The position numbers and the translations under genes are program-made. A stretch of DNA of 56,342 nt, filler included, from Sluysia triapertura (taxonomy: Eukaryota), in assembly GCA_046118255.1 (NCBI GenBank). It is 4 parts of 4 records of this genome, joined end to end, with 100 filler letters (N's around TTAATTAATTAA, not from the genome) between each part and the next. Parts side by side here need not be neighbours in the genome. Positions count along the whole stretch, not along the records: positions 16,083 to 31,195 come from JBJNIA010238772.1; 3 more parts are not named here. One strand, given 5' to 3'. Shown here in pieces: positions 12,680 through 56,342 of the stretch (positions are counted from its first letter, which is position 1; the number at the start of each line of letters is the position of its first letter). The notes under the pieces were generated by a model. That model saw only the letters and a list, made by a program, of their open reading frames with translations. It searched no databases and was not told where the DNA came from.

Positions 12680-14089
12680 ATAATAATAATAATAATCTGC
12701 ATAATCGAAAATAAGAAAGACTTTTATGTTGATCTTAGATAAAATTTTTATTTCCGATATGTCAAATATTTAATATTCAATAATCATCCTTGCATTGCCA
12801 TGAAAACATAGAAAACAACGTACAAATGAGGAAGTCAGAAAATAAAGTTTGGTATTCTAAGCAAAAAGCAGAAAAATCTGTATCTGCATAATGTTTACAA
12901 ATTGATTCATATTCAGATGGTTTTTTTGATGCTTTGTTAAATGATGTGCCAAATTAATTGATACTACTGTTTCCAGATGTTTCAAAGAAATACAATTTTA
13001 TGATAAATTAAAAATGTAAAATAAGACCTTCGAAACTGTTTAAGCATATGGTTAGAATTTGAAAACAATACATTATTGTGGCGTGTGTCAAAATACACTT
13101 GAATTCTTATGACATATTTTGTATGTCAGATTAGTTATAACAATGCAGTTAATTGCTATCCTGAAATATTTTTAAAGCAACTAAATGAAAACATTAAAAT
13201 TAAGTAAATTAAAACCATTAGATTCATTAATAAGACTTGCAAATTATTATGTAAATTTGTATTTTACTTCAGAAGCTAATACTGATTTGATCAAAATTTA
13301 AATAATAGGTTACCTTATAATGAATCTCATCAAAGAACGTACGATCAAAAAATTTCGAAACTGCCAATAACCGTCTTTATTTATTAGTTGTGAATTTTCT
13401 GGGAAATAAACCAATTTGTAAATAGTGTAAGGTCTAGTTTGTACGCATGAAAACTTTGATCATGATCTTTTCGAAGATGAACGTATTAATTTTGAATACG
13501 TTTTTGTACATTTTTAAAAACGTACAACAAACGTCGAGTGTTTCTGGTACAAGAAAGTTACCTAGAATATATTCCCAAAAGAAATATTCAAGTTATATGT
13601 AAACTTATTTATAAGATGATGATTTATTGGGAAATTAAAGGTACTGTTTTTCGATGAATATGGGGTGTTGGATTGGATTAACTATGTTAATATTGGTTGC
13701 GAAATAATATATTTTCGTGATAAAAGATAATATTATAGCCAAAATACAACGATATTACGCGATGTCGACCTAATAATAATGTCGAATTGACAGTTAATTG
13801 AAAGTTAGAACATTTTATTTAGGATACGAAATCCAATCCTAAACTTACTAACTCTCGTGGCTTAACTAAACCTTTTGAAATATTACTGTGCTACGTTATT
13901 TAATTCTCGATTATTTAAGCAGAAATCTGAGAAGTAATTTCAAAATTATTTTCAAGTGCTTTAAGAACAGTTACAGAATAAGTAGGATAAAACCGAGATA
14001 TAAAGCCTATATTTAAGCATTAAATAATTTAAAAATATGTATTTTAACATATTTTTGTACATAATTCGTCATCAATTAACTACTAAATA

Positions 14090-14480
14090 CGCTTTAAGGT
14101 TTTAAAGTTGCCTAGTATTTATAATGCTCTCAGGAGGTATTAGATAATTTCACCTTCATCAATTTGATTCCTTTTTCTACTTATGTTAATTATTAATATA
14201 TCAAATTTATTTTTAATATTATTAACAGTTATTTTATTTTTCATATATTTTAAAACTTTTAAATACTTTTCAATGTTACTCAAATGTTTTAAAGACTTAT
14301 TGAGGTTTTAAAAATCCTTAAAAGCTTATAAGATCTTAAATGGTTTGAACGCTCACAAACTCAAGAATACTTTAATATTTCAAAACGTTTTCTAAACCCA
14401 CCTCAGGCTTTTTCAACGGTCTTTGGAAATCCGTTGTATTTTCATCTTCATCATTCTTATTCTACAATGTTTACAATGTT
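14090..14480 (+). repeat. Host repeat H, partial copy
   Basis: Aligns by eye with 7660-8090 and 26950-27370. Confidence 0.8.
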
Positions 14481-15982: not shown

Positions 15983-16082
15983 NNNNNNNNNNNNNNNNNN
16001 NNNNNNNNNNNNNNNNNNNNNNNNNNTTAATTAATTAANNNNNNNNNNNNNNNNNNNNNNNNNNNNNNNNNNNNNNNNNNNN
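15983..16082. other. Assembly gap with artificial TTAATTAATTAA linker
   Basis: 100-nt N run with a central six-frame-stop linker. Confidence 0.98.
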
Positions 16083-16198
16083 AAACCATTTATGTTTTGG
16101 TAGGACTTTATTTTGATATTTATTTTGTTATAAATATCATTATAAATATCAATAGTTGTAATGATTGGACGTCCATACTGGCGTTCTGCATATTACTA

Positions 16199-16610
16199 CC
16201 AGGGATGACACAACTCCAATAAAATAAATGTTTTTTTAAACTAAAATGTAATGAATAAAAACAAGCTACCAACAATTGTATATTACCTTGAATGTTTGTT
16301 TTAGTCGGTTGCTAAAAATAAGCCTAAATTTCACCGTTTTCCTCAAATGAATTGAAGCAGCGTTCCTTAAGCTAAAAGTTTTCAATTTCGTTATTGTATT
16401 TTCCTACTTTTTCCTTGTTATCTTGTTTCTGATTTTCTATAAAATATGACGCATTATAGTAGTTTTACGATCATGTGGGAAATTGAAAATTGAAAATTGG
16501 AAATTGGACAAGACGGCATTTTAAAACTGGCCACTCTTTTTAGTCGGTGATAAGCCGACCAATTTTACTGATTAAATTTCGACAGTAATTTCCGCATTTA
16601 TGTTAAACAA
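16199..16610 (+). repeat. Interspersed repeat C, copy 1
   Basis: CCAGGG(A/G)TGACACAA start and TTTTAGTCGGT(G/A)ATAAGCCGAC hairpin block shared with 27393-27790. Confidence 0.65.
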
Positions 16611-17081
16611 TTCCTTTATCTTCTCAACATCATTAAATTAAAATGTAATATCATTGTTATATTTTATTGAATCAATAAGGCAATTTATTAACTTAAATTA
16701 AGGAAAAAATTAATGGAATATTAAATTTATTTTCCTATAAGAATCTTTTATAAAATACGTTGTGCGTCAACCGTACGTTCAAGTTCAATAATATATTTAG
16801 AATAGTATCTTTATAAACATCAATTTAATATATACTTTGTTACTACTTAAACATCGGAACATATTATAAAAACTAATTAAAGTAACTAATTGTTATGTTA
16901 TCTACGTCGCCATGTTTCGTAATACTTCAGACTTAAAAATACTAACAAAACTCATAATTATGCACTAAATCTAATATTATTCTAACATGAGCAAACATTT
17001 TTATTAAGTTATTAAATTAAACAAATTTTTATTAAATTAATTAACAAATGTACTTTAATACTATAATAAATAAAACCTTAA

Positions 17082-19153
17082 TGTGGTGGTCCAGCCCGCA
17101 ACTACATACACATGATATAAATCACACCAGTCAATTTCATAAACCTCATCACAAAAATCACATCATAACAAGTTTTGCTCGCATCATTCACTACATCACA
17201 TCACTCATCCTTACAAAATCATTGATGCGTAATAAAATTCCTTTTATTAACATTATGATCAAAACATTAAACACAACATGCGTTGTCATCTTGTCATCAT
17301 TATGACGCAACATCCTTTTGCTTGTGTCTCGCAATCTTTTATTTTATATTTTACATCTGAAATATAAAAGGTGATCGTAGTTTCCGTATTAAACTTGTTG
17401 AGACTTGTTATAAATAAAACCTATAATGTCGTAACTCGTACGAAAGAAAGTACATGTTTAAGATTGCTCGATTTCTAAAAAAATTTTTTAAAAACAGATC
17501 TTGTATAATCATCTTAATAATTTTTGTTTCATCTATTTTGAAATTCTTCCTACTTCAGATGTGTAATTTTTATTCAAAAATTTATAATTTATAGTTTTCA
17601 TCCAGTGACATTTTTTAGTTTATTTTTCATCAATAATTGTCAATCGAAAGACCTAACTATATTTACAATTTTGATATTTTTAATTGTTTTTTATTAATTT
17701 ATTACTTGACATCGTTTCACTTAATATATTAACAAATGAAAAATATTGCGAGGTTAATACACTTCAAACGAAATATTGAAGTGTAACAATTAATGATTTC
17801 TTAATCAAATTACCTTAATTTTGAATAATATTTTCATTTAATATAAGGAATGTTCTTGAATTAATACTACACACAACTTATTGATTTAATCAGTTAAAAT
17901 TTGTTTATTATTATTTTTATTATTATTACTGCTATTATTATCATTTTTTATTATATTTATATAGTTCAAAAATAAGCTATATATCAAACAAAGTTTTAAA
18001 ATTTTACAAATTACAAAATCATTTTGTTTTTAATAAATTTTTTCTTGGTATAATGTTAAAGGCGATCAGATTTAAAAAATCGAACAGCATGATGTCGACT
18101 AATTTTTACTCTCTAAATGGCGATATCGATTGTGTGAAGAAAGTTATTGTAATACACTATCTCATGGCCTTCCTCATTTGTGTCAAATAATGGATGAAAT
18201 TGTTACAGCCGCTACTGAATTTGCAGCGCTTGCAAGCTTCAGCAAATTCAGATCAACTAAGAGTTTACTGCGGTTGCTTTCAGTAATTCTATACCATCGG
18301 CGATTTTTATCAATTTATGTTTCAAACATTTTTCAAGGAGTAGATGAAAGAGAATGTTACATGGAAACATTACAACCATGTTTTGACAACCAAATAGTGA
18401 AGAAAAATCAGTCAAACGTTGAAGTAAAGAGCTTGATGACTGCAGACGCAATGTTTTTTAAAGGTATGTGCAGTAACGTCGTAGAAAGATATATTTATCG
18501 TAGTAATGATGTTTATTCTATTTTTTAAAGTTTATGGACAAAGTACTCTTATTTTAAAATACGTTTTATGTTTTGAAGTTTATAAAAGTAATTACATTGA
18601 TTTAAAATATGCTCGTAAATTTAGTAATGTTTCGATTTTTAAAAGTTTATGAACAAATTACTCTTATTTTAAAATATGTTTAGTTTATTAATTTGCGTCA
18701 AGTTGACTATGCCGTTTTAAAATACGTTTCGTTTTATAAAATTGATGACGAAGTGACTAAAGTCTACCTACAAGATACTGATAATAAGTCGAGCGGACCA
18801 CATCGTGTTGAGGAAAAGATTGACATCTCCGATCTTAAAGAAGTTGTTCCCACGCATGTGGACGGTACTGGGCAGAGCAACTATCCCGTGTCAGTTACAA
18901 CGGTGATCCGTCGAGAAGGTAAGCTTTACTTACTGAAATTTGTTTCTTTCGTGAGTGTACGAAGAATAGCTGTAAAAATATTTTATTGTCGCTAAATAAA
19001 CAAATTCTGTGTTATTTTTGTCTTAAGAGGTTATGTCATAATAAAGTCTTCATGTGCCTTAAGCATCCATTTCCTAATTATATTTATTTAGATTCTATTA
19101 AGAATTTTTTAATCAATTAACTAATGAAAACAATAATGATAACTTATCCAACA
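17082..19153 (+). mobile_element. Cargo element E2 (divergent), 4-bp TSD TTAA
   Basis: TTAA|TGTGGTGGTCCAGC ... ATCCAACA|TTAA; A/C-rich 5' part; internal ORFs 18130-18528 and 18693-18995 followed by AATAAA. Confidence 0.55.
18130..18995 (+). pseudogene. Unassigned cargo ORFs of E2 (132 aa and 100 aa)
   Basis: ORF track; higher GC than flanks; separated by ~40-bp direct repeats at 18527-18567 and 18641-18680. Confidence 0.35.
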
Positions 19154-19481: not shown

Positions 19482-20043
19482 TGTGGTGGCTAACTTTTCA
19501 TACAAAATTTTATTATGTATTTTTATACTAAACCACAACTTTACAACACTCAAAACACTAACAACATCAAAATCATTATATTTATATTTTAAAATTTTCT
19601 TTTAACACTTCTAACGTCATTAAATGTCTCTCACAATTTCTCTTTTAATTTATTTTTATTATCCGTCCCATTTCTCTTTCTATAATAATCCAAAACATAA
19701 TATACGTCAGCATCATCCAAGTTTGTTTCAAAATCGAAGAAATGTCGAAACTAATCAAAATGCACTATTTGACGATCACAATATGTTATCAGATTTTGTT
19801 TCTACAGCAAGGAGTTACTATGTTATCAATAAATTGTCATATTTTACACCGAAAGCAGCCAGAATGAATTATGATTCGAAAAATCTAGTAGAGCATGGCG
19901 TTCAAGAGCGAAAAATACAATTAATAAAGACGAATATTTATATATTTTAAGATGTCAATGGTTATCAGCATTAACTATTTTTAAAGTTTTACTTTCATTA
20001 TGTTCAATTATTTTATCAATAAAGGAATATATTATTTTATACA
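19482..20043 (+). mobile_element. Short or deleted cargo element E3, inserted in host repeat H
   Basis: Starts TGTGGTGGCTAAC...AAAATTTTATT like the other copies; residual ORF 19624-19950; minus-strand H resumes to the left (19420-19437 matches ~8130-8146); right end approximate, no TSD found. Confidence 0.45.
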
Positions 20044-20734
20044 AATTTGTAATTAAGAAATATTTAAAGAAAAAGAATATTAATTTTAAAGAGAAAGAAC
20101 ATAATTTAACAAAGATTTAATGAAATTTTAAGAATTAGAATAAAGATAAATATGAAAATAAGCAGGTATCATAATTAAACATAATCTAAACATAATTACA
20201 TATTCCTAGAGCAAAAATAATGAACAGTAATATGTTTATAATCATTTTGGAACCGAAGAACACCTTGGAATTCCAAAGATATTTGTAGAGTATTGAGACC
20301 CTTATGAAGACTTAAGTAAGTATGAAAAGATATCTTGAAGTATGAAGATACCTTTAAACTTCTGAACGTTTGAAACCTTAATAAACTTTTGAGACATTCA
20401 AATAACTTTGTAAAATGTTAGGAACCTTTAAAATGTTCAATAATTAAAATCATGGTTAATAATATTAAAGATAAATTTGATACATTAATAATTTAAATAA
20501 AAAAGTAGAAAAAGGAATTAGGGTGGTGAAGGTGAAAACATCTAAAGCCTCCTGAATACCTTATAAAGTATTTAACTGTTGAGGGGTTTTATATTTTAAA
20601 ATTGGTTCATTAAAAATCGAATTATTATTATAATAAAAACAAAAATAAAATATGTGTAATTTATTTTTACACTCTTTAACATTTGATAATAAATAAAATT
20701 TACACAAAATTATATATGATGCATATATATAAGA

Positions 20735-21208
20735 TTAAAATACTGTCCCGAGTAGTACGCCACGTATTACTCCCACTCCACTATCTAAACAAAAATAAAA
20801 ATTTATAATATTATTATCGGTGTAAAATTTAATTACTTTTAGTTCGTTATCAATCGTATTGTTATTGCTGGTGTTCAGATTTGATGTTTCGAAGGATCTT
20901 AAGATGTTACCGATTCGATAAAGATGATTGACGTTCTGTAAAGAATTGGTGTATGAATTCATCAGTTCTTTTACTGTATGGGCTTAATTACAGCTGTTCC
21001 CATATTTATCACAAGTTCCTTTTTTGTCAATATCAAATAGGCACATTGCTCTTTTGATACTATTATCAGAGTCCATATATGGTCAACGAGTTTGATATGA
21101 ATTGCCTTGTGATTGATCATCTTTATAATTGTTAAGTTTGTAATCATCAACTCTTTCATTTTCAGAACAATCATAGTCAGAACTACATGAAAACATAGGA
21201 ATATTCAT
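20735..21208 (-). pseudogene. CCCH zinc-finger cargo gene of E4 (Unkempt-type finger), two premature stops
   Basis: One frame from ATG 21208 contains IKRAMCLFDIDKKGTCDKYGNSCN*AHTVKEL (C-x9-C-x6-C-x3-H); stops at 21083-21085 and 20984-20986. Confidence 0.7.
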
Positions 21209-21402
21209 AATAATCTGTTATTTAATGTACAATAAATATCCGTAATGTTAATCTTTTAGTTGAAAAATTTTTGAAACCGTAAAATTTTACCAAATTAACT
21301 GGTGTATGATTATTGTAATTGAGACAATAATTTTTAGATGTGTTTATTGTTTGATCGTACAAAAATAGCATGAAAATTCTCAATGGTAAAAAGTAAGTAT
21401 TG

Positions 21403-21670
21403 ATTGGTCATCCAACCAGAAGTATTGTAATGATAAAAGCAGTGATACTTGTTCTGGTTGGATGGTCAATAGAACACACAAATTATCAATCACAAATTAA
21501 ATGATTGATGTGTGAACTACTATCAGTGGTGACATTGACTGTAATTGTAAATTAATACAGTCACCACTGGTAGTGGTAGTTACCAAATAAATTAAGTAAA
21601 AATAATAAAATTAATAAAATTAAAAATGGTAATAATAATAATAATAATAAAATTTTATTATCATTATTAT
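21403..21670 (-). promoter_or_regulatory. Conserved hairpin cluster and CCAAT box of E4
   Basis: Inverted repeats 21403-21421/21452-21470, 21485-21509, 21516-21533/21560-21577; GACCAATCA on the cargo strand. Confidence 0.6.
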
Positions 21671-24667
21671 TATCCTAAAAACGCATAGATTCTCTGGTTC
21701 TGTGAATTACACATTATTTATTTTAAGTCTTTACCTTCTGAACATATTAAAATCTATTTAAACAAACTAGATATCTTTAATGGTGTATGGAGGTTAAATG
21801 TTATGATGGAATAATGTTTCTAACTGAAGATGTTAATAGAGTGTAGAAGGTTATGACTTAAGTACTTTGGAATAATATAAATGTTAAAATATCTCCATTG
21901 GTGTTTTGAAAAAGTCATGTTTGGTTGTTAGGATTTAATGATAAAAGATCATACATTTAGAATGTTTCAGATGATTTAAAAGTGTATGATAATTCATTTC
22001 GAATGTGGTTGAAATCGAATTGTCAAGAAACGAAGAATAAAATATTTTAGATGAATTTTTAATGTAAATTAATGGTTTTGAATGTAATTGTGGTTTGACT
22101 CTTATGAGATTGTTGGTTTAATTGGTTTTAACGGATGAAGATGTTTTAGTGGATGTAAAAGAGATAAATATGGGAATGTTAAAATGTTTAAGAGTATGGT
22201 TTTACGTACAATGTGTTGATTTAGTTTAATATTATTTTATATTGAATTTAGAATGTAAATGGTAGATTTTGAAATGTTTTAAAAAATGGAAGTTGATCTC
22301 TGTCGATGTAAAAGAAATAAGATATAAAAACGGTTATGACGAATTTTGCAAAATGTTGTGCAGTGTTGCAACGAATATGATTTTGATTATTTTTTGTATT
22401 AGTTGTGAATTTGAAAATTTGAGTTTTATATTTTGGGAATGAATGTTATTTTGGCAAAAGCTTATGTAAAAGAGATGTTTTTGATGAGTTTTTTTGGGAA
22501 ATATGAAATGTAAATTTTAATAAAATTTGTTAAGGTTATGTGTTGGCCACCACATTAACAATTTCATAATCATAATAAAACCTTTAAACTTAAAATAAAA
22601 TAAGTTAACTTAGCTTAACTTAATTACGAAAAATTACGTTAGTGTGAATAACTTTTAAGTGAGAAAAATTGTAAATGTGAATGTATGTGTTTTAAAGAGA
22701 TCTTGAAGATAAATAGTGAGGAGGTCATGCGAGGAAAACTTCCATATCCAGCAGAGTCGAATTTTAATTAATTTTTAATTAAAAAATGTTGAAATTTTCA
22801 TATTTAGAATGATAAAAAGATAATGAATTGAATATCGAATGATTGCTTTAAAAGAGGAGAAATATTGCTACTTCTTTAGCAATTCTTTATTACTACCAAA
22901 TTTATTTTAATCGAGCATTAAATTTAGAACTTAATAAGATTTAAAACATTCGAATTCGGATATATTCAGTTTAATGTAAATATATTAATGAAACAATTAA
23001 GGCCTACAACTCTGATCAATATTAAAACGGTAAGATATTACTTGTATTGGTCAGACATTCTAGAATAACCAGAGCAGCATCTGACCGTCAGTAATTTAAA
23101 TAATAATAATAATATAATAAGCCTACGGTGGTAGAACTAGTAGGAATTTCCCAAAAATTAAATATTCGCACTCTATAAAAGAAAATTTATGATTGATTGG
23201 TTCAGGATTTTAACTCAAAAGAATTTAATCAAATAATTCACAATAATTTTATTTTAAAACAAGTTTGGCAGGGAACCTCCGAAAAACAATTTCTAAACAG
23301 CTTAAAATATAAATGTTAAAATAGCGATAAAAAGCAAATAAAAACACTTTCAAAAAACTACTTTACACGCGAGTTCCCCGAAAATACTTAAAAATAAAAT
23401 ATTATTTTCAAAATAAATAATTAGTAACAAAATAAAAATAAAAAATTATATTTTTACAAATTCTTGGATACTCTTCGATTATACCGCTACATTTGTTATC
23501 ACCTCTTTTGTGCTGTTTCTTATTGTGTTGTAAAATCTTTAAGTATTACTCTATATACTTTCCCATCCACTAATCATTCTTGAATTTTGCAATTAAACAA
23601 TCTCTCACTTAAATAATCAAAACATTTTTGAAAATTAAACCGATAATAATAACTTTGACATTTACATAGTACGGCCTGTCAGACTTTATTAGATGCAGAC
23701 CACCAAAATTTAATTAATGATCAACCATTATTTTTAATTATCAGTATTCTTAACATACATAAAATAATGAAATTAATTTTAGTTTTTAAAATTCAATTGA
23801 TTTTGGTTTTTCATACCCAAGTTTTTAATATAAAACGTTTAAGGTTTTTATTTTCAAACAAACCACTCTACAAGCTGTGGAGGCCAACCTATTATCTTAA
23901 TAAATTTTATTAAAAATGTACATTACACATTCTCCAAAATTCATCAAAAAAATTCCTTTTACATAAGTTTTTGCCACCATAACATTCACCCCAAAGTCTA
24001 CAATTCACAATTAATACAAAAATAATTAAAATCATATTCGTTTCAACACCACATAACAACCTTGTAAAATTAGTTACAACTGTCTTTATACCTTAATTCT
24101 TTTCTCATTCACCAAAATAAATTCTAACTTCTCAAAAAATTTCAAATATTCAACCTTATAACATTCGAGCCACAATCACATACAATACCAGCAAATTACA
24201 CTAAGAAATCCATTAAAAATATCTTATTTGTCATTTCAGAACAATCTAACCACAAACATATCTCCAAACTAATTCAAACATTCTAAATTCATGATCCTCT
24301 GCGGCACATAAAGACATAACTACTTAAACATATCAAGAAAATAAATCATATTTTTTAACATTCTATAATCATTTTTGCAAACATACTAAAAGCTAGACTA
24401 TAATTTACATTTTTACAATCACTAAACCACACTCTTCTCAATGTATCTTTAGGTCACAATCTCCTAATATTCAAACATCATCTTCAGTTAAAAACATTAG
24501 TCGACATCTAAAAATTCATTTGAAAAGTCCTAAACATTACCGTACAGCATTAGAACTACAATTTTTCAAAACGTTTCTTATTTTAATAAGTTTAATGTGT
24601 TTAGAAATGCAAGAGTTTCAAAAGTGAGTTCATGTGAGTTTAGAAATAAAGAGTTTATGCTTTTTGG

Positions 24668-24940
24668 AATAATAATAATAATGATAACATTTTGTTGTTA
24701 TTATTATTTTTACCATGTTTAATTTTTATTATTTTTCAATTAATTTATCTAAATTATTAATTTGGTAACTACCACTAACACTGGTGACGGCATGGATTTA
24801 CATTTGCAGTCAATGTCACCACTGATAGTGGTTTACACATCAATCATTTAGTTTCTGTCATCTATTTTATGCGTTTCTATTTGCCATCCAAATACTACTG
24901 TTGTTATCATCTCAATGCTTCTGGTTGGATGACCAATCAA
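24668..24940 (+). promoter_or_regulatory. Conserved hairpin cluster and CCAAT box of E5
   Basis: ACCACTAACACTGGTGAC (24771)/GTCACCACTGATAGTGGT (24815); TTCTGGTTGGATGACCAATCA at 24919, ~85 nt before ATG 25022. Confidence 0.6.
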
Positions 24941-25021
24941 TAGATACAGTATCAGAGAAAATTTTATTGTTACAATTTTCATACAAAATGTTAAGACTCA
25001 GAAATAATGCAAATAAAATGA

Positions 25022-26575
25022 ATGTTCAAAACACATTATTATGTTTTTTTTAAAATCAAAGCTAATAGTCTCTTAAATCAAGACAATGGAAATTACGCAA
25101 AGATCAGAATTTTCAATCTAAATTTAGAATTTTATACAATGAATGATCTTAAGGAAGATTCATTGTGTTTCCTGTTCGATAAAATAGAGAATTTACACAG
25201 ACCCGATCATTCAGAAGATATATTAACAGCACTTAGGGTTCATACTAACCCATTATCAGTTATGCTCATAGTGAATGCAAATCTTAATCTGAAATTCAAT
25301 ATTAATAATCAAAATCAAAATAATACCTGTGAAATCAATGCACCTAACGAAAATATTTCATATATCAAAAAGAGTTCGCAATCGAATGATCATCGATTTA
25401 ATAGGATTGTACGAAATTTTCTTGGTAATCATATAACCGATAATACCGATAACAAAGATGCAAATTCAATGAATAGATTAAGTATTAAACTTATTCAAGA
25501 TTGTTTGATAATCCTAAGTAAACTATCCGATTTAAATGTTACATGCATGAAGGATTTAATTCTGATTAGTATCATTCCATATAAACTTTCTCAAATACAA
25601 ATAATTTCAATGGATTTATATAAATACATCGACTCAGCCACCTTCTTTTACAGTGGACTGACTCTATTCAACAAAAATAATAGATTATAATTTAAACGGG
25701 ATGTAACAATTAAGAAGTTGTATGATTTGTTCTTGAGAAACATGTTGCAATTGTTGGGAGAAGAACCAGTTACATTTGAATTATCAAAATTTTATTTGAA
25801 CTGTGTAATGCTGGAAAGGGATATTTTACATAATGACATTAGAAATTTAGCAACCGATGAATTTATGACATTTATTAAAGATGTTTGTAGTCAAATAGAA
25901 ACTGAAAAGTTGAAACCAATAGATCTTATTTTAGACGGTTTGTCAGACAAAAGTTATTCTGCGAAACAATGAATAGCTAAACTTTGAAAAGAGAAATTTC
26001 ATCAGACGCAGGTTTGATTCATAAGTGTGATTTAACTCGTAAAAGTTTTAAACTATGTATTCAAAACATTAACAATTAGTTTTTATCATTTATTCTTAAT
26101 GAAATTACTTTAGACTACGTTATTTGTAATGTGAGACAAAATGAAGTAATACGTACTGATAATGCTCCTGATTATCAAGGAAGAATCAGTTATATTAACT
26201 TAAATGGTTTAATAGTAGTTCGTTGCGATCTACTTGAATTACGTAATGACCTTAACATTATTTTTGATTATTGGCACCTTTTGCGCACCTTGATAGCGTG
26301 TTTGAAGTTTACCGAAGAAACAAATGAATGTAATTTGCTAAGAGTGATGACAGAAAATTTTAATAAAAGTTCGGTATTTAATCTCTTAACAATATTTAAG
26401 AGTAAAACTAATTCCGAGATGATAGAAAAGAATGAAGATGAACCTAAAGTAATTACATTTTACACCAAAATAATGATATCATAATTCTTTATTTTTATTT
26501 AAATAGTGGAGTGGGAGCAATACGTGGCACATCATGTGGGACAATTTTTGTAACTTATATGTATTTATTAAATAA
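25022..26575 (+). pseudogene. Cargo gene of E5, interrupted; weak nuclear-receptor-LBD-like segment; 3' end homologous to E4/E6 cargo
   Basis: Consecutive ORFs of 222, 84 and 117 aa; ILSKLSDLNVTCMKDLILI has LBD-signature spacing; putative intron 26449-26506 followed by TGGAGTGGGAG(C/T)AATACGTGGC shared with E4. Confidence 0.55.
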
Positions 26576-27392
26576 AATTGCATGTAATTTTTATTTCTTA
26601 TGGCTTCTAATAAACGTTAAAATTAAATCTCAAACATATTTGTTTTTACTTTATTATAATAAATAAGTTAATTCGGATTGAGATATCATTAAATTGTAAT
26701 ATAGATTCTCCTTTTTCAGAGAAATAACCTCATATTCAATTTATTATCTTTTTATTATTTTAAGTAAGAAAATTTCAACATTTTATAATTAAGAATTAAT
26801 TAAAATTTGACTTTGCTCAATACTAAGGCTTTCCTTGTATGAACTTTGTTAAACGATACCTTCATGTAAAGGTGTTTATAAAACATTAGTCATTCAAAAT
26901 TAATTAAGATTTTGAAAAATTAATCTATTTTTAGACTTAATTTTACATTATGTTTAAAGGTTTTATTAAGATTCTAAAGTTATTTAATACTTTATAAGGC
27001 ACTCAGGGCTTCTAGGTACTTTCACTTCCACCACCCTGATTCCTTTTTCTGATTCTTTATATTAATTATCAATGTACCAAATTTATCTTCATTATGAGTA
27101 ACAATGAATCCAGTTCTGAAACATTGTAAAGATTTCAAATATTTTGTTAAATTACTCAAAGGTCTCAATGCTTATCAAAGATTACTTAAGGTTGAATAAG
27201 GACATAAGTGATCTCAAGCCTTACAAGTTCAAGGGTACTTTAATGCCTCTAGAGGGTTTCCAAACCCATCTCAAGCCTCCGCAAGGTTTCAACACCTTAT
27301 AAAGGTCATTGGAACTCCAAGATATTTCTCGGCTCTCAACATCATTCTTATTCCAACAATGTTTATAATGTTATGTTATAATGTTATAATAA

Positions 27393-27790
27393 CCAGGGGT
27401 GACACAATTTATTTAAATTCTCGCACCCGTATTGATACAAAATGAACTCAATATAAAATAAATCACTAACCCTACATCCTCTAAATCTAAATATTTATGC
27501 GAATCAATTACTAAAGAATAAGCCTTAATATCACTGTTAACCACAGATAAATTAAGGCAGTTTTCCTCAGCTAGAAAGTTTTGTTATCTTAACTTTAACT
27601 CTGGTCTCGGTTGTTTTTACTTCTAACTCTGTGTAAAAATGTAACTGTTTATGTAGCAATTTTATGATGTTGTAGGAAATTAAAATTAGAAATTGAACAA
27701 GGAAATTAAGCTGTGTATTCTCTTTTAGTCGGTAATAAGCCGACTAATTTTACTGATTGAATTTCGTCAGCAGTTACCATCTATGTTCAA
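27393..27790 (+). repeat. Interspersed repeat C, copy 2
   Basis: Same start and hairpin block as 16199-16610. Confidence 0.65.
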
Positions 27791-28182
27791 ATTCATACAT
27801 ATTGAAGTTCCGAATTTGTTTTATTATTGAGTTATAATTTAATATTGTAAATTAAAAATAATAAAGACGCAACATATTAAAAAACAAATAGCTGTAAAAG
27901 TGAAAATTAACTCCGTTAAACGATAAGTTGTATAAATCATGCGTTAAGCTAGCTAAAACACGCTAACTCATTAAGTAAACTTATTTTGCTTTAGAGTTAA
28001 GAAAGATAATTCTAACATGTTTATACAAATTAATTAAATGAATAATACTGCTTACACTATTCTTAATTTTATTAGTTTAAATAATCTGATTAAATTTTGA
28101 CACAGTGTGACGTTTATTTTCATTAATTTTTTAAAATCTATTTTATAATTTTCAAATCTTATATCGATCTAAATTTTACTTA

Positions 28183-28698: not shown

Positions 28699-30133
28699 TA
28701 TTTTTATCTTTATTTGCAATTATTCACATTATGAATAATTATAAATTATTTTGAAAAAGTATAAAAATAAAATTTTCTATTCTATTCTTATTATCAATTA
28801 GACATTTTTTTAGAATAATACATCAAATTTTTTTATTTATGTTGCATGCTGGTAAAGTGATTATAATTTCGTATAAATATTTTAATTTTTGAATTTTAAT
28901 TTTAATCCTTTGAATTTTAACTCAATAACTATAAAATTTGTTAAGTTAAAATTTTACAACTTAAAATTTTAGTTTAACACTTATGTAATCAAGATCAGCA
29001 AATTACAGAACCTTAAATTTATTTTTATTATTATACTGTCATATAAGATGTTCCAAATTTTCTATACTGTCATATAAGATGTTCTAAATTTCCCTAAAAC
29101 ACTACTATGAAATAATTCGACATTACATCTGTAACTTTCTTGTCATCAACAAATGATTGTTTTAATTTTTTTAAATAACCGAATAGAGTTTTTTAATGTT
29201 AAAATTAAAAAATAATAGTATTTTTCTTTAAAAAATTTTTATTTCACTTGACGGTTTCGGACTATGATGTTTGGATTTTTCTCACGAATATTTACTTTAG
29301 CTTTGTATTCTATTTAATGTTCGCTTGTGTGGTGGTTTAACAGTTTTTCTTAAAATTTTATCCACAAATTAAACAACAATACAAGCTTTTAAGCGGTTTA
29401 ACACAAAATCTTTCCATTTTAAAATATTTGTTCGGTTTTCCTTACTCTTCGAACAATTATAAAAATGTTAAATTTATATTTTGGGTCCGCCTACGCTAAA
29501 CGATTTACCTATAATGGACGTCTGCGTAGGATTTTAAAGCTTTGTCAAATGAATTAAAGAGGGTCAGTATTATATGCTCTGCTGTTAGAATGTGTTTGTA
29601 TTTTTTAGAGGTTAAACTTTTATCTGATCTTTTTGTCTTTTAATATATTCAAAAGAAATTATTCACTTTACTATATCCTTATTAGTACTTAAATATCTTT
29701 AATCTTTTCCTTTATATTTTTTCAACTATTAAAAAATTCTTTAACTTTCTTTAATTGACTTTTAATCTTTAAAAACTTCTATTACACTTTCTTGTTAAAC
29801 AATTATTATAACACAACAAAAACTTGATATAGGAACTTTTATTATATAACAAAGTATAAAACAATTTTAGAAAAATTCAGTTCAATAAAAATTTTAGATA
29901 ATGTAGACAATTATAATAACAATATATATATTATAAGTTTGAGTGGGATTTTAACCCAGAAGGTACTTGTGGGTGTATTCTAAATAATTTATAAAAGAGT
30001 TTACGTGTAGTTTAAGACCGCAAACAATAGGGTCGAAATCTTATAAATAAATAGCTTACGTAATCTTTGTTTGAATATTAGAGTATCCGAAATTGTGCAG
30101 ATCGAGTCGTGTAACCGAATAATTTGTTTCACC

Positions 30134-30278
30134 AATATCTTTGCCAAATCGGAATATCTTTACCAAAAAATTGAAATATCTTTACCAAATTGAAATATCT
30201 TTACCAAAATTGAAATATCTTTACCAAAATCGAATATCTTTACCAAAAATCGAATATCTTTACCAAAAATCGAATATC
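30134..30278. repeat. Minisatellite, about 7 copies of ~18-20 bp (GAATATCTTTACCAAAAATC)
   Basis: Directly visible tandem units. Confidence 0.9.
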
Positions 30279-30892
30279 GACTAAGATTTTCCGACAACTA
30301 ATAATTGTGCTTTATATACTTTTTTTTGCTGTAAATATCCGATTGAATTAAAATTATTATATCCTTTGTAATAATGGTATATTCGTTTATTTTTTGGTTG
30401 AATAAAAATTTAAGATAAATTTCCGTAGTTAAATTATAATGACTTTTACATAAACATCCTTATTTTTTGGTTTATCGTAATAATAATAAAGATAAATTAA
30501 ATCATAATAATGTAAGTTTTCAGATAAACATAAAATTTTGATGTAATAAATTTTCAAATAAACATAAATATTGTTATTCGTTTGTACATAATTGTTTATA
30601 AAATTATTATATTTTTACAATTATTATTGACACAATTAATAATTATTATATTTTTACAATTATTATTACAATTATTATTTTACTTTAAATTAAAATATTT
30701 TCATCGAAATAAATTATTATTATAATTATTATTTACAACTCGACATAATTTATTTTCTTTATTTACAATTTCTAAAAAAATAATATTCGAAAAAATAAAT
30801 CGAAAATTCTGTAACATTGATTTTTATTGGCTGATAAGTGGTTTAAATTAGTTTAGTTTAAATTACAATTTAATAACATAATTAAATAATTA

Positions 30893-31038
30893 TGTTAGAC
30901 TTCATAAAATGAATTGACCGTGAATCGAACCTGGGACTTCTCGCTGTGTAGTTCAATGCTCTAGCACTCAGCTATCAGCCTCGTCTAACAATTTTTGGAT
31001 TAGAATAATCAACCATACCTTAGGCCTATATCCCAACA
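30893..31038 (-). mobile_element. tRNA-carrying mini element, copy 1 (decayed)
   Basis: TGTTAGAC...CCCAACA on +; flanks ATTA/ATAA (3/4 match); tRNA-like sequence at 30910-30981. Confidence 0.7.
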
Positions 31039-31195: not shown

Positions 31196-31295
31196 NNNNN
31201 NNNNNNNNNNNNNNNNNNNNNNNNNNNNNNNNNNNNNNNTTAATTAATTAANNNNNNNNNNNNNNNNNNNNNNNNNNNNNNNNNNNNNNNNNNNN
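31196..31295. other. Assembly gap with artificial linker
   Basis: 100-nt N run containing TTAATTAATTAA. Confidence 0.98.
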
Positions 31296-31519: not shown

Positions 31520-32343
31520 TGGAATTAGGTGACCTCTCGGTGCTGGTCTTTGGCCATTGTTAGAGGCACCATAATTGCTTACTTTACTGTTTTGGAACCC
31601 TTTATTTATATTATTATTCGTATTATAATTCGTATTACCCCTATAATTACTTGAATTATTTCTTTAATTTGAATTATTTGAATTGCCATTATCTGTGCGT
31701 GGGCTATTGTAATTACTATCGTGATTACTATCTATCATAATTAGAAGAATTATATTTATCATCATAATTACTTGTATTTCTTCTTAATTTAGGGCTTTCA
31801 TCTCCTTTATATTTTTCTTCCGTATTACTTACGTAATTGATGTTATCCTTGTAAATATAGGATCGCTCTATACTTCTTAATTTCTTAATTATTTTTCTAA
31901 AAGGCTTTCCTTCTATTAAGGTTGCATATATCCTTAACTCTAGTCGTTACCCAGTTTTTAATTTATCTATTAATTTTGCTCTGGTTACAAGGCTTTTAAC
32001 AGCGCAAGCATATTCATATACAGATTCATTTGGCTTTTGTCCTAGAGTTTAATATTTTAGTATAGTATTTTCCCATTACAAATGCGTTCCAATATTGCTT
32101 ATCGATATTGCATATCTTTTTATATGTCTGCATCGCCTCTTCAGTTAAATAATTTTGGATTCTCTTAACTTTTTCGGCTTCATTCCAGCCATTTGCTTCG
32201 GTGATGCTTTAATATTCGAATAAGAAATCACAAAGATCTTCCTCTGGTACGTCAAATTTTCTTATTCCACGTAATGCCATCAAAGGGCGCATATCTTTGG
32301 CCAACTGTGCCATGTAATCTTTGAAATCATTGGGTAAATTCAT
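31520..32343 (-). mobile_element. Ty3/gypsy gag pseudogene
   Basis: DFLFEY*SITEANGWNEAEKVKRIQNYLTEEA and LGQKPNESVYEYACAVKSLV match retrotransposon gag and its major homology region; multiple stops. Confidence 0.8.
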
Positions 32344-32836
32344 TGTTACTGTGTGGTTTCTTAATTTAGATTTATAATCTTCGTATACTATAATTTGAGT
32401 ATCAATCCTTAATTCTTAACTTATAAACTTAATAAAAACTTGTGAATTATGTCACAACTTGCAATTTAGGTGAATAAAATATATTTACGTACTTTATGAT
32501 TAGGGATCAATATAACTTAGAATATTATCTTACTTAAAGCTTATGCTTATATTTATATGCTAATTCTATCTTATACGCTGGTCCAGTTTTTATGCAAGAT
32601 TTGTTAAAATTTCTTATTTATTTGGATTTTATCCTAAGTGAATCCCTTACGATATTCGGCTTACTCACTTAAGGGCTAATACGTAAGTGGCGTATAAAAT
32701 CGCTATTTTGAGGTTATGTAAAAAAGCGTTGGTAATCTAGCTAAAAAACTAATGTGATGGTGTCATAATGTAATTCCTGTCTTATTGCAATGACAGATTA
32801 AAACTATATAATTTACGTCAGATCTCAAAAGAGTAA

Positions 32837-32994
32837 TGTTAGACTCCATAAAATGGACTGACCGGGAATCGAACCCGGGACCTCTCGCTGCGCAGTTCGA
32901 TGCTCTACCACTGAGCTATCAGCCCTGTTTAACAATTTTTAGATTACTATATTCTATTACACCAAATGGCACCCTAGGCCTTTTTACCTCAACA
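32837..32994 (-). mobile_element. tRNA-carrying mini element, copy 2, 4-bp TSD GTAA
   Basis: GTAA|TGTTAGAC...CCTCAACA|GTAA on +. Confidence 0.8.
32854..32925 (-). tRNA. tRNA-Ala-like gene or pseudogene with abnormal anticodon arm
   Basis: GGGCTGA TA GCTCAGTGGTAGAGC ... CCGGGTTCGATTCCCGG TCAGTCC A; intact acceptor stem (G3:U70), D and T arms, A/B boxes and TTTT terminator; anticodon stem does not pair canonically. Confidence 0.7.
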
Positions 32995-34508
32995 GTAATC
33001 TGCAATTTTTTTAGATTTCAATGTTACAAAAAATTCTAGTAGTCGGTAATGTTGGGTTAATTTTAAACTTCGATAAAGAGCAAGGAGGAATAACTCGTGT
33101 TAAATAAAATTATTATAACACAAAATTATTATGGCAGTACGATTATACAGGAAACATTATAAATAATTATACTGAATTTGCCAAAATTATACCTTATGTA
33201 ATATTTTTATTCTATTGTATTTTAAAAAAATATATTTCATCAACCCTTTAAAAGGTTGAAGTAAAAAATATAATAATTGATTTTTAGTAAATTTCACGTC
33301 ACGTAAACCTTGCCTATCCTATAATGAAACTGACTAACGTTACTATTTCTTTTCAAAATTCGGAATTGTTTGTGAAGTCGAAGATAGTGTTAGAATTGTT
33401 TTTTATTATTATCACCAAAATATTGACGAATTTCGAAGTCTTTAAGTCGTGGCAGAAATATTTTTAAGAAATTTATGTTGTGTTTATGCATTTTTATTGC
33501 TACTTTTATAGTAATTTTGAATGTCAGCTTATAATTGTATTTAAACAAAATTAATTTGTATTTTTAAAAATTAAATTAAATAGTTTAATCTTAATAGTTT
33601 TGAAGCTTTAAATTAAAATTATATTATTAAATTATTAAAAAGAGAAACATAAAAATAAAATACTTACATTAAAATGTTCAAAAATTCATATTAATATTGT
33701 TATTTAGACACACACGAAATCATATCACATAGAATCATATATATATATACTACACATAAAACATATAAAATCAATCAATAACTGACAACATAAATTCAAA
33801 CTTTGAAATCAAACTTTTAAAATTAATGATTGTTCTATTCTGTTATTCATTTATACACTAATTGATACTAATAAGATATTTTGTTTAAAGTTGCTACACT
33901 GAATTTAAAGTTGTTTTATCGTATTCCATGGAATTTAATATCAGCCTTTGACTTTATATAATAACGCTTATATTGTATGATTCTTTGACATTATAATGAA
34001 GTAAGATAAATTTCTATATCATGCAATCTTGTATAAAATTATTCCTAAGTATATTTACCGATATATATGTAAAAGTAGCATCACAATTATAATGTTACTC
34101 TTGTTAAAGTTCCTTGTATTGCCGAAAATATGTTAAATTATGTATACTGGCACAATAAATCTAATAAAATTGCAGACTGATGTCGCTTTTGTTTTTTAAA
34201 ACAATTAACTTTCATTTAAGTTATTTTTATTAATAAACTTTAATTAATAAATTATACCTTTTCAATTTTAACTTCATAATTAGCATTTAACATTTTCTAA
34301 TTAATCATATAATTGAAAATACTAAACTTCTAATTTGTTTGAATTGTTTACTTTAATAATACATTCAGATATATGTAACAGTAAACTCTACAAAATTCTT
34401 ATAAATAAATTTTCAAATTCAAATTTTATTTTTCTTTAATAAAACAATTTTTTTAATTTTGAAATTAAGTTATATTTGAATAAATTAATTAATTTTATTT
34501 ATTTACAA

Positions 34509-35217
34509 ATGTTAATAAGATTGAAGTTATTGTTTACATTTTTATTGTTGGTAATTCAAGGAAGTTCATCTAATAAAAAATGCTGGAGGAAAGATCAGGA
34601 AATAGATTGCTTGATGTATGGTTATTGTAATGTAAGAAGTTATTATATGTGTTTGTACAATTATTTTCAAACATTTGTATCAACATTTGTAAGACAATGC
34701 GAAATACATGAAAACATATGCTCACACGAGTGTGATTTTGTATCAACTTGGAAGATTGGTCCACAGAAAACAATTGTGCGAAAAGTAGAAGGATGTAAAT
34801 TGCCAGAAATTGTGGATTTAACCAAGAAACCTGAAGTTCCCTTAAGTTAGATATTACATTAAATTTTTTTATTTATCAATTTTAGAAATTCATAAATCAA
34901 CGTTTGTTAATTACTACTACATTTCTGGAGCTATAGTAATTCTGGTTGTTTTGATATTTATACTCGTATTGTGTCGACGAAAAATGATAAGAAATTTGAT
35001 TCAAATGAATATGAGATCAAGTCCAGTAGTTGATAATCAAAGCTTAACAGAATTCCAAGGAATCAAAGTAACAGCTAATGATATGGCTCCTCCACCATAT
35101 GCTATTTGTACTCAAGTTTCTAAGCCTATTGGGATTAGTCAACCGTCAGCTAGTATAGAGCCACCACCGATTTATTATGCTCCTCCGCCATATGAAAGCC
35201 AGAAAAACGTTGAATAA
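34509..35217 (+). CDS. Single-pass membrane protein: signal peptide, Cys-rich ectodomain, TM, three PPxY motifs (WBP1/VOPP1/Shisa-like architecture); exons 34509-34845, 34886-35217
   Basis: A 40-nt GT-AG intron (34846-34885) joins the two ORFs in frame, giving TM ISGAIVILVVLIFILVLC followed by RRK; PPPY, PPIY, PPPY. Confidence 0.8.
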
Positions 35218-36994: not shown

Positions 36995-39594
36995 TGTGGT
37001 GGTCAACCTATTACTTTTAACAAATCTTATTAAAATTTTTCTTTTCAACATAATAAAAACCGCATTTACTTTCAAATTCACATTTTTAAATTCATTATAA
37101 ACACTTTCATACATAGTTCAATACTAACATAACCAAAATCATATTTTTTAACATCACACAATTACTTTTTAGAATGTACCAAAACATAGTCTATAATCTA
37201 TCTTATTCGCATCCACTAAACTACTCTCTTTCCATATATTAGCAAATCACAATCTTCTAACATCCAAACATTACCTTCAGTCAAAACATCAATGTATATT
37301 TAAAAATCCACATAAAACCTTTATATAATTTCAAAATACTTAAAATACTTTCATCACCCAAACTTATCTTCAGTTAAAACTATTAAACAACATTTAAAAC
37401 TTCATTTAAAACATTTTACCTAGTATTGTATGACATTAGAGTCACAATTACACCTTAAAATTTTATCCAAAATATGTAACATTAATCTGCAACATCACAA
37501 GTTCACCATTCTTTAATTCCCATAACTTCAAATATGTTTAGAAATAATAAAAGAATTAGAAAGAAAGTTTGTGATAAAATTATTGAAAGGATTTATGCTG
37601 TTTATAATGATAATAATAATAATGACATTGTTATTATTATTATCATTTTTATTTTCATTATTTTTAATTTTTAATTTTAATTTTATCATCTAACCAGTAA
37701 TTACCACTATCAGTGGTGACACTATTGGTTACTTTGTATAAATTCTTGTCACCATTGATAGTGGCTTGTCTGTCAATCTTGTTCTCTTCTAACGCTATTA
37801 TTGTACCTGATCATTATTTTTATCACTCTGGTTGAACAACCAATGAAGACAATCTCTCATTTGCTGTTGTGTAATTATGTATTGATAGTATTGCAATATG
37901 ATTGGTACTAAAAATAGTGATACTATAATTACCACAATTACAATTTGGTTGTTAATTTAAAAATTAAATTAACACTGTAGGAAATGTTTTATTTTTAAAT
38001 CGTAAAAGCACAATTTTTGAGTTATTTATGATCACATAGTTAAAGACAATAGAATATCTAGATTTAATGATAGACAAACATTTCGTAAAGCGTGTATCAA
38101 CTGTATATCATAGTTCTCAAACAATCAAACCTATAAGTATGAATATAATGACTTCAACAACTGAGTTGGAAATTATCACTCAACCAAATGAAAGTATTTT
38201 ATTAAATCTAAATAACAATAATCAAGAACATGATGGTCAGGAACGACGGAAATGCTTATACATTAGTATTGCAGAAAAAATTGATGAAATCCTCATTTAT
38301 TATATTTATTTACATGTTCTCTATCCTAGGCTCGATGTTAATATTTCAAGAGAATTTACTAATCCAAATCTAGAGCAGACTATTACTCCTATAGATTGCT
38401 ATGAAAATATATTCATTGTAATTAGACGTGAAGTTCGTGAATTGAGAACTCCACCACCAGTTTCGACGATAAAACGAGATTAATCATTGACAATTATATC
38501 AGTATATTCTCTCAATGTTATCTGATTTCAAAAGTGAAAAGATCAAGTGAAAATTTAAAAGAGCATGCCTTTTATGAATTTACGATGCCAATTCGTATAG
38601 AATTACTTGATAATAATATAGATAAATTTGAGCTGATTCAAGGGATGCTGCGTTTTCGAATAGGAGTAGATATAATTAGTCATGTTGATATCATTGATCT
38701 GAATCAAAGTGTAAAGTTCGCATCAATAGTTACTGGTAAAGTTTATGCTTACTCTAGTCCATGTAAAAGAATGCTTATGACCGATATACAAGTTAAAGAA
38801 AATATTATATTGAACATAAATATTATCAAACCTTTTAAGATAAGAACAATGAATACAAGCCTAAACTTAATTTCGAATAAAGCTTTACGAATTAACGCAT
38901 CCCAGTTAAGTATCAAGTACAAAGACCAATGTAAAAATGACTTGGAAATACGTTCTGTATACTGATCCTTACAAACATCGTCATTTTAGCTATACGTTCA
39001 AGAATTTAATATACCTTCCATCGGTTACTGTCAATTCAATTTCTCACAACTGTTTCAATAATTCATCAAGTTCAAATTAATGTATAACAACAGCACTTTG
39101 CCCATCTACTAGTGACATAAATGGCAGATGCACAACATTTGGAGTTAATTGTGTATATGTGCACGCGGTTAATTAGTTATTGAATCATAGATTCGAATAT
39201 ACATCTCACACAGATCATCAATCCAGACTTAGGAATTTACTAAAATGCATTGGAATACCAACCTCAGAAATATAAGACAAGATTGGTTATACTAGTTATG
39301 ATAAAGTAATTTTTCTTTATTGTTACACCAAAGGCAATCTAACTTCTATTTTCTTTTTAGATAGCAAAGCGTGGCTAATCGAGAGGAACGTATACAGAAC
39401 GATCTTCCTAAATGTTCAAATTTTTAAATTTTGTATGTTGAATAAAATGTTTTGTGTTTACAGATTTTCGTTCATTATTTATAAACTTTAAATTCATTCT
39501 TCTTTTTAGATTCGATGAATATTAACTTAGGAATAAAAGTTTTAAAAATTAAGATAAAAAATGTTATAAAAACGCAATTTTATATAAATCAAAA
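36995..39594 (+). mobile_element. Cargo element E6, 5-bp TSD CTATT
   Basis: CTATT|TGTGGTGGTCAACC ... AATTTTATATAAATCAAAA|CTATT; 5' module and hairpin 37704-37764 homologous to E4/E5. Confidence 0.8.
38067..39426 (+). pseudogene. Cargo gene of E6, interrupted, with Unkempt-type CCCH finger near the C-terminus
   Basis: ORFs of 138 and 143 aa, then ITTALCPSTSDINGRCTTFGVNCVYVHAVN*LLN at 39084-39185; putative intron from 39306 to 39360 or 39364. Confidence 0.65.
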
Positions 39595-41793: not shown

Positions 41794-41961
41794 TCCTAAG
41801 GGAGAAGACGCTATGAAAACCGAAGAAGACGAACTGCCCAATGAAATAATGGATTGGTTGAAATCCACATTTACGAGAAGCGGTAAGAAGAAGCTTAACA
41901 AAGAACGGCCAACGTTTCGAGGAGTTGTTAAAGCTATTTTAGCATCCATGAGAGTCGAAAA
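41794..41961 (+). CDS. PDE1: Internal exon of Ca/calmodulin-dependent phosphodiesterase (PDEase_I_N region)
   Basis: EEDELPNEIMDWLKSTFTR...RPTFRGVVKAILASMRVEK matches PDE1 VPSEVRDWLASTFTR...KPRFKSIVHAVQAGIFVER; TTTCAG acceptor and GTAAAT donor; contig ends shortly after. Confidence 0.8.
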
Positions 41962-42089
41962 GTAAATAATGATTATAAATAAATAAGTAATAATTAATAA
42001 TAATAATAATATAATTATAATAATAATAAATTCGTCAATATAAATTAAATTTCCACCATCTTTTGTTACACATAATACATAACTAATTC

Positions 42090-42267: not shown

Positions 42268-42367
42268 NNNNNNNNNNNNNNNNNNNNNNNNNNNNNNNNN
42301 NNNNNNNNNNNTTAATTAATTAANNNNNNNNNNNNNNNNNNNNNNNNNNNNNNNNNNNNNNNNNNNN
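42268..42367. other. Assembly gap with artificial linker
   Basis: 100-nt N run containing TTAATTAATTAA. Confidence 0.98.

Positions 42368-56267: not shown

Positions 56268-56342
<75 letters not shown>
56135..56342. repeat. Compound (ACT)n/(ATT)n/(AAT)n microsatellite
   Basis: Directly visible. Confidence 0.9.

Follow-up and report, generated by a model that had tools for sequence, protein, structure and literature searches.

The window analysed here is a 56,342-nt stretch of Sluysia triapertura DNA with ~25% G+C, consisting of four genomic parts separated by joins of 44 N, a 12-nt spacer and 44 N (15983-16082, 31196-31295 and 42268-42367), none of which falls within the elements described below. 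It contains an insertion, E4, in which a block of hairpins, fixed in position, separates a strand-skewed block from the variable gene, here called the cargo. The labels E4, E5 and E6 are those of a preliminary description of this DNA, and E1, E2, E3, E3b, R and HA to HD are our own. The features of E4 are as follows.

20572 to 20576, + strand: left copy of the 5-bp target-site duplication
20577 to 22554, + strand (the proposed LTR reading, against the cargo): whole insertion, 1,978 bp, with TG...CA ends
20735 to 21208, - strand: cargo reading frame with two internal stops and an Unkempt-like CCCH finger at ~20966-21055
20785 to 20836, - strand: putative GT...AG intron of 52 nt in the 3' module (predicted donors at 26449 in E5 and 39306 in E6)
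21403 to 21407, - strand: CCAAT closing the HD arm, present in E4, E5 and E6 and lacking in E2
21403 to 21470, no strand: hairpin HD, arms 21403-21421/21452-21470, 17/19 Watson-Crick, 30-nt loop
21485 to 21509, no strand: hairpin HC, a perfect 8-bp stem (21485-21492/21502-21509) that extends to 21475-21515
21516 to 21577, no strand: hairpin HB, arms 21516-21533/21560-21577, 16/18 Watson-Crick, 26-nt loop
21632 to 21673, no strand: hairpin HA, an (AAT)n/(ATT)n palindrome, arms 21632-21650/21655-21673, 18/19 paired
21755 to 22554, + strand: strand-skewed block of ~800 nt, G/T-rich on this strand, ending ~80 nt before HA
22519 to 22524, + strand: AATAAA, 36 nt inside the terminus and followed by a G/T-rich tail
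22555 to 22559, + strand: right copy of the 5-bp target-site duplication

The four tandem hairpins reported earlier for E4 were confirmed in place. The 286-nt block folds with -83.2 (+) and -79.4 (-) kcal/mol (z -8.06 and -9.20), and none of 200 shuffles folded equally well on either strand; with HA removed, the z-scores are -8.0/-7.3 (60 shuffles). Stems scoring at least 11 number 183 in the window, and only five are compact and GC-rich (an arm of at most 19 bp with at least 8 G/C), four of them within hairpin clusters. HB is the best-conserved element and has a short palindrome within each arm, and the cargo-proximal arm of HD contains a small alternative hairpin that is present in all four clusters. 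The CCAAT box said to end the last arm is indeed seen in three of the four clusters (E4, E5 and E6), the fourth having ACAAT at this place, and it is a putative NF-Y site. No conserved TATA or INR was found beside the hairpins. They had been placed directly upstream of the cargo start, which is true in a loose sense, the first long ORFs beginning ~85-220 nt downstream. The hairpins resemble a folded control region, not microRNA genes.

At gathering score, Rfam found a single tRNA in the whole window and no hairpin match; below threshold there were 14 matches on the E4 cluster and one on that of E2, all far under the family cut-offs. Six hammerhead-like ribozyme cores occur in the window, none of them in a hairpin cluster and none recurring across copies, and membership of the Penelope-like elements or retrozymes was rejected on the lack of a hammerhead core and of any Rfam match. 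A 49-nt match of the AT-rich palindrome in a phage collection was taken as chance. Three further stems were observed: an (AAT)n/(ATT)n palindrome, close to perfect, that closes the window (56269-56342) with no sign of the hairpin element beside it; an isolated imperfect 18-bp stem at 29323-29386, including a TGTGGTGG motif, which is not followed by a skewed block and is not matched by the family profiles; and an extra 18-bp stem in E2 (11967-12019), ~110 nt upstream of the E2 AAT palindrome and absent from the other copies.

Five more copies or fragments of the family lie in the window.

9636 to 12679, - strand: E2, with a hairpin cluster at 11568-11856 showing compensatory changes; left end not found
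17082 to 19153, + strand: E3, 2,072 bp, with TG...CA ends and TTAA flanks, GC-rich hairpins missing
19482 to 19720, + strand: E3b, a truncated sixth terminus with skewed block
23876 to 26701, + strand (cargo +): E5, hairpins at 24670-24937, within repeat R; terminal motif not found
36995 to 39620, + strand (cargo +): E6, HA and HB at 37606-37764, CCAAT at 37840-37844, cargo at 38067-38965 and a CCCH remnant at ~39090-39173; right end not found

The equivalents previously proposed in E5 and E6 hold for HA and HB, which recur there and also in the fourth cluster, that of E2 on the minus strand, which had been missed. The long HD stem is intact only in E4 and E2; in E5 its 5' arm is short of 9 of the 19 positions, in E6 that arm is missing altogether, and pairing of HC is confined to E4. 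Without HA, the z-scores drop to -2.1/-1.5 in E5 and -4.0/-3.5 in E6. E3, which has both ends, is without the GC-rich hairpins and gives z 0.2/1.2. Scans of the window with profiles built from our own alignments found no cluster beyond the training copies.

E4 is inserted as a discrete unit that has TG...CA ends and lies between the two copies of a 5-bp target duplication. In the cargo direction it begins at 22554 and closes with CAACA at 20577, and an identical 5-mer flanks it on both sides. It interrupts a copy of repeat R, and removal of exactly 5 bp lets the rejoined flanks match the E5 copy of R best, and without a gap (scores of 102.5, 103.5, 108.5 and 105 for 0, 4, 5 and 6 bp removed); two random 5-mers of R would match by chance with p 0.0035. 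The E1 copy of R has a gap at the junction and does not separate 4, 5 and 6 bp. E3 is flanked on both sides by the 4-bp TTAA, compared with 5 bp at E4. Both ends were found in these two of the six copies; the far ends of E2, E3b, E5 and E6 were looked for and not found, nor was a target duplication for these four. On the target duplication and the TG...CA ends, a Helitron was dropped as a candidate, judged by the general features of that group.

Repeat R (~1.07 kb) is C-rich on one strand, and its copies have common 3' ends, varied 5' truncation and, in one case, a short tandem tail; it looks like a non-LTR or SINE-like element. Two of the six hairpin-family elements lie inside it, in a nest of repeats between ~7 and 40 kb of the window.

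7025 to 8093, + strand: copy of R
14013 to 14480, + strand: copy of R
23508 to 23873 with 26702 to 27385, + strand: copy of R
~22865 to 22555 with 20576 to 20189, - strand: copy of R

A third repeat (27385-27945 and 16191-16761; 63% identity over ~600 nt) begins with a CAGGG motif, a start that we take to recall hAT ends.

The family has six related TGTGG termini (22554-, 23876+, 36995+, 12679-, 17082+ and 19482+), spread over ~25 kb of the window, distances across the joins between parts being uncertain. Behind each comes a skewed block that, on the cargo strand, contains ~5-10% G and 17-21% C (~6% and ~20% in E4), together with old subrepeats of ~170-190 nt. The end consensus for LTR integrases is TGTTRNR...YNYAACA, and TGTGGYG is given for the CsRN1 clade in the part of the source used here (PMC3601003). 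The cargo-3' end of E4 and an end of E3 match YNYAACA at 7/7 positions, and in both elements the opposite end has one mismatch to the consensus; TGTGGYG is matched by five of the six starts. The terminal inverted part is only ~8 bp long, and the terminal motif fits both orientations about equally.

Orientation is addressed by the position of polyadenylation-type signals. On the anti-cargo strand, five of six copies have AATAAA or a variant of it 33-37 nt before the CCACA end (three exact, two with one mismatch), compared with four exact AATAAA in 2,439 nt of background on the same strand; as the copies are related, this is conservation and not five independent events. The order AATAAA, GT-rich stretch, CA is described as a conserved LTR 3' end in the section of PMC3601003 drawn on here. 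In the cargo direction, E4 has an AATAAA with a T-rich tract 89 nt before its CAACA end, a signal that the cargo gene would require under every model. The family thus has several features of LTRs, namely short inverted TG...CA ends (E4 and E3), a duplication in the range of 4-6 bp and AATAAA followed by a GT-rich stretch. A search of the window gave no pair of matching LTRs, the six CCACA and two TGTTG ends are all without an adjoining PBS or PPT, and the 150 ORFs scanned (21 + 129; stop-to-stop frames of at least 52 aa from 1.6-48.5 kb plus selected others) contain no reverse transcriptase, integrase or transposase domain. The missing pol, PBS and second LTR are as expected of solo LTRs, and the LTR identity is unproven.

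Each copy has a variable segment downstream of the hairpins, followed by a 3' module common to E4, E5 and E6 (71% over 270 nt between E4 and E5). The CCCH finger of E4 matches PF25427 (E 3.4e-07, 30.5 bits, under the curated cut-off of 31.1), as does that of E6 (E 0.0028, again under the curated cut-off), and the two are linked by tblastx (E 5e-05), at the protein level only; the E4 cargo is thus not unique, the finger being common to both copies. The broken cargo of E5 (25022-26484, ~1.4 kb) encodes a KIDINS220-type SAM domain (PF23307, E 1.9e-11). The cargo frames bear stops or shifts. A 'SIN1/AVO1' label for E6 was not accepted, as its one Pfam match is weak (E 0.0012) and falls below the cut-off. 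The cargo ORFs of E2 (9636-11439) matched no known family. Searches for longer-protein relatives of the E5 SAM ORF found none among 155 candidates (a weak test), those for relatives of the E4 frame, translated with X for each stop, none among 14 candidates, and those for relatives of the E6 ORF at 38441-38965 none among 1.84 billion representatives; the PDB gave nothing informative apart from a weak Unkempt match (E 0.33). The family matches suggest that the cargo domains may be of host origin. At the DNA level, none of the ten pairs among the variable segments of five cargo regions was clearly above 30 shuffles, the highest being E5/E3 with 78 against a maximum of 76.

A segment bounded by GT and AG lies at a matching place in the 3' module, with a length of 52 nt in E4 and 55 nt in E6, and with the first AG at 58 nt in E5. 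It looks like an intron. A codon test comparing the frame after the acceptor (2 synonymous and 6 non-synonymous changes) with read-through (0 and 5) offers weak support, and reading through gives an open frame as well. Capture of a processed mRNA was dropped as an explanation on account of this apparent intron.

The similarity between copies ends at places that differ by pair. E4 and E5 part at 21366/24972, 37 nt past HD, and rejoin at 20855/26430; the alignments of E4 and E5 with E6 stop at or just after HB (21519/37762 and 24845/37778, respectively). The suggestion that the hairpins mark a site of cargo exchange is thus in keeping with the E4/E5 break but not with the two breaks that come already at or after HB, and mapping across E4, E5 and E6 gave no single breakpoint.

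Taken together, the hairpins are probably the structured core of a family of 2-3 kb elements, inserted by an integrase, in which each copy carries a different small gene, and the family probably represents gene-carrying, LTR-like insertions. The explanation that we favor, with a confidence that as a whole chain stays a little short of even, is that these are solo LTRs with an antisense accessory gene and that the hairpins form a strand-neutral promoter or leader structure. The LTR would read against the cargo and end in AATAAA, a G/T tail and CA, and the cargo would be an antisense accessory gene inside it; this orientation accounts for both AATAAA signals and for the retained intron, since an intron lying antisense within the LTR would survive reverse transcription. 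The hairpins and the CCAAT box would serve as promoter and 5' leader of the cargo gene and would also be copied into the element's own RNA; in LTR terms their place would be either U3 or the start of a long R. The variable gene segment would be swapped next to the hairpin block, E5 being the one clear case.

A non-autonomous DNA transposon with integrase-type ends, of Ginger/GingerRoot or Pack type, is an unlikely alternative; it would have acquired its gene pieces by gap repair, and the hairpins would be promoter dyads or part of a 5' UTR. According to the sections of the papers used here, TG...CA ends are known in Ginger, GingerRoot captures gene fragments (PMC6839031), and Pack-TIRs capture exonic as well as intronic DNA (PMC8277862), so that capture of a gene with its intron needs no antisense argument. 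The captured fragments and non-autonomous copies seen here are in keeping with such elements, as is the absence of a second LTR, PBS and PPT from the termini examined. The inverted ends of ~8 bp are, however, far from the TIRs of 100-150 bp that GingerRoot has together with a 6-bp duplication, and Ginger1/2 make duplications of 4 or 6 bp, as given in the part of PMC6839031 consulted. No long terminal inverted repeats occur in the present family, which differs from Ginger and Pack-TIR elements also in its conserved internal hairpin block and its one-sided poly(A)-like end, and the positional AATAAA on the anti-cargo strand would be left unaccounted for.

The evolution of the hairpins bears on their function. 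Covariation was tested on a four-copy alignment (A2) in which the pairs of HA, HB and HD were assigned by hand (57 pairs, 195 cells, 90.8% of them paired). Two-sided changes occur in eight of the 57 pairs, all from one Watson-Crick pair to another; one of 500 shuffles reached this number and slid controls gave 0-3, figures that rest on four related sequences and on a shuffle that takes no account of relatedness. E2, whose adjacent block is ~51% identical to that of E4, accounts for seven of the eight changes, and E6 for one. The covariation is suggestive, not proof, of selected structure, and arm-to-arm copying can yield paired changes without any selection. Between E4 and E6, the HB arms are identical at 32/36 positions, the loop at 11/26 and the adjacent block at 310/586 (53%); between E4 and E5, the arms are identical at 33/36 positions compared with 63% in the flank. 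The arms are thus more conserved than loop and flank between E4 and E6, which supports selection on HB, and together with the two-sided compensatory changes this supports a conserved folded element.

The wobble pairs had been read as favoring the antisense strand in E4. This applies to HB and HD (four pairs), but HA favors the cargo strand, and in the four copies together neither strand is favored (10 G.T and 8 A.C on the cargo strand, p = 0.81); the non-Watson-Crick positions number 28, the remaining ten being plain mismatches. By stem, HA leans 7:1 towards the cargo strand, and HB and HD together 3:7, towards the anti-cargo strand. In the reading of solo LTRs with an antisense gene, the hairpins would be held to Watson-Crick pairs without wobble bias because they are present on both strands or act as DNA.

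The hairpins could also be without selected function, that is, quasi-palindromes kept by template switching from arm to arm, acting as fragile or pausing sites for exchange of neighboring sequence, as in the recombination site suggested by the preliminary description. This we regard as distinctly unlikely. The lack of wobble bias and the plain mismatches (10/28) are compatible with it, and so are the pairing of HC in E4 only, the breakage of HD in two of four clusters, the absence of the block from E3, the swap in E5 that starts 37 nt past HD and the AAT/ATT palindrome standing alone at 56269-56342. It does not explain that the sequence of the HB arms, beyond their pairing, is conserved far above the flank (32/36 vs 53%; 33/36 vs 63%) or that loop length stays within 25-31 nt, and the variation of the breakpoints by copy pair also argues against it.

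A reading of the unit as an LTR that runs in the cargo direction, with skewed block and gene as an enlarged U3 and the hairpins as a signal for genomic-RNA export, packaging/dimerisation or internal translation, appears very unlikely. TGTGGYG starts and YNYAACA ends fit this direction too, an AATAAA with T-rich tract precedes the CAACA end of E4 by ~90 nt, the palindromes nested in the HB arms could permit alternative or intermolecular pairing, and HA wobbles favor the cargo strand 7:1. Those of HB and HD, however, favor the opposite strand 7:3, the intron would have to evade splicing in each cycle, the AATAAA near CAACA could equally be the cargo gene's own signal, and the conserved hexamer at the opposite end would be unaccounted for. 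Packaging signals of the retroviral type, which encapsidation requires, belong to the RNA leader near or behind the PBS, and psi usually lies beyond the PBS; were the unit an LTR, the hairpins would be inside it.

That the element carries a group of hairpin-siRNA precursors or of pre-miRNAs, the latter as proposed in the preliminary description, is most improbable: HB (62 nt) and HD (68 nt) are of suitable size and their arms are conserved over their loops, but the canonical geometry of 30-35-bp stems and loops <15 nt, as given in the part of PMC12553114 used here, is absent, the stems having 18-19 bp (~25 with inner extensions) and the loops 26-30 nt. HD, HC and HB stand back to back, two of the four hairpins do not persist from copy to copy, HB and HD folded alone with 15-nt flanks gain just 0-10 interrupted flank pairs, the HB arm sequence is altered in E2 (21/36 identical), and no Rfam family was reached, the best sub-threshold match being to plant MIR827 (27 bits vs 65 needed); the hairpins are thus probably not a miRNA cluster.

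The proposed LTR family can be placed beside several described systems, as these are presented in the portions of the cited papers drawn on here. With solo LTRs of animal Metaviridae (Ty3/Gypsy), including flatworm CsRN1, it shares TG...CA ends, inverted repeats of ~7-8 bp, TGTGGYG, a short duplication and AATAAA with a GT tail (PMC3601003, PMC2582038). In contrast to CsRN1-like elements, which make 4-bp duplications and include PwRn1 with an LTR of 381 bp (PMC2582038), the present copies measure 2-3 kb, E4 has a 5-bp duplication, the gene carried has a putative intron and no parent element occurs in the window; of the features of the CsRN1 clade, TGTGGYG is thus found at five of six termini, while the combination of 4-bp duplication and short LTR is lacking. 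The clade is further marked by a tRNA-Trp PBS, a CHCC Gag and its RT phylogeny, features of an internal region, none of which occurs in the window. Solo LTRs of the cestode ta-TRIM are 198 bp long with 4-5-bp duplications (PMC4558846). In HML2/3/4/8 endogenous retroviruses and in MMTV with its sag gene, long LTRs bear sense or antisense ORFs that are unrelated between groups, and stem-loops in R (PMC2664473), a likeness that is limited by the invertebrate host, by a length beyond the 1,300 nt of MMTV and by the host-like domains and apparent intron of the cargo. The plant elements Grande, RIRE2 and Retand have antisense accessory genes with their own upstream promoter, as proposed here, but between pol and the 3' LTR, that is, outside the TG...CA unit, and these genes stay conserved within a family (PMC7264820). 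Giant Gypsy elements of planarians (Burro/GYPSM1) have BIR, MATH, ankyrin and RING domains in the internal polyprotein or an accessory ORF (PMC6431247), and thus offer, compared by description only, another flatworm LTR element that gathers host-like regulatory domains; the portion of PMC8532177 on Burro used here is without LTR detail. No description of the hairpin-element family was found in searches of open-access main texts.

Hairpins in a transposon are ordinary by themselves, and the interest lies in the element around them. A further-reaching version of the favored reading, which we hold to be rather doubtful, is that an LTR was turned into a gene cassette in a flatworm retrotransposon lineage: the hairpin/CCAAT promoter would drive an antisense spliced gene, upstream exons would be exchanged between families for host-like CCCH, SAM and ubiquitin-like domains, a common last exon would be kept, and each solo LTR would be a complete transcribable chimeric gene. 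Should the copies be solo LTRs, complete chimeric genes with their introns would be spread over the genome by ordinary LTR recombination, a route of gene shuffling unlike that of retrocopies, in which introns are lost, and unlike that of Pack-TIRs. The hairpin block would then provide a conserved landmark by which to find the family and to test how a promoter or leader common to opposite transcripts evolves.

The surroundings of the elements include host genes and other repeats. An intronless SLC16-like transporter gene lies at 210-1583 (-); its ORF encodes an MFS transporter whose named best matches are flatworm proteins (Schmidtea, trematodes, Macrostomum) with ~55-64% identity, so that the host is a flatworm-like animal. 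An N-terminal exon of PDE1 was seen at 41753-41965 (+) and two thioredoxin-like exons, presumably of the UGGT type, at 49721-52162 (-); at 34443-35217 (+), two ORFs encode a membrane protein that has PPxY motifs and a part rich in Cys. A broken frame at ~32030-32345 (-), with ORFs between it and the CCACA end of E6, lies 4.6 kb beyond that end on the same strand; it has no Pfam match at E 1 and contains a motif that we take to recall Ty3/Gypsy Gag. A tRNA-like sequence at 32854-32925 (-), with no anticodon assigned, has a diverged second copy at 30864-31019 (78%), and the pair is possibly a tRNA-derived SINE. A MITE-like inverted repeat at 52252-52743 has arms of 71-75 bp, 85% identical and ~490 bp apart, and a tandem array at 30134-30278 comprises about seven units of 19-20 nt.
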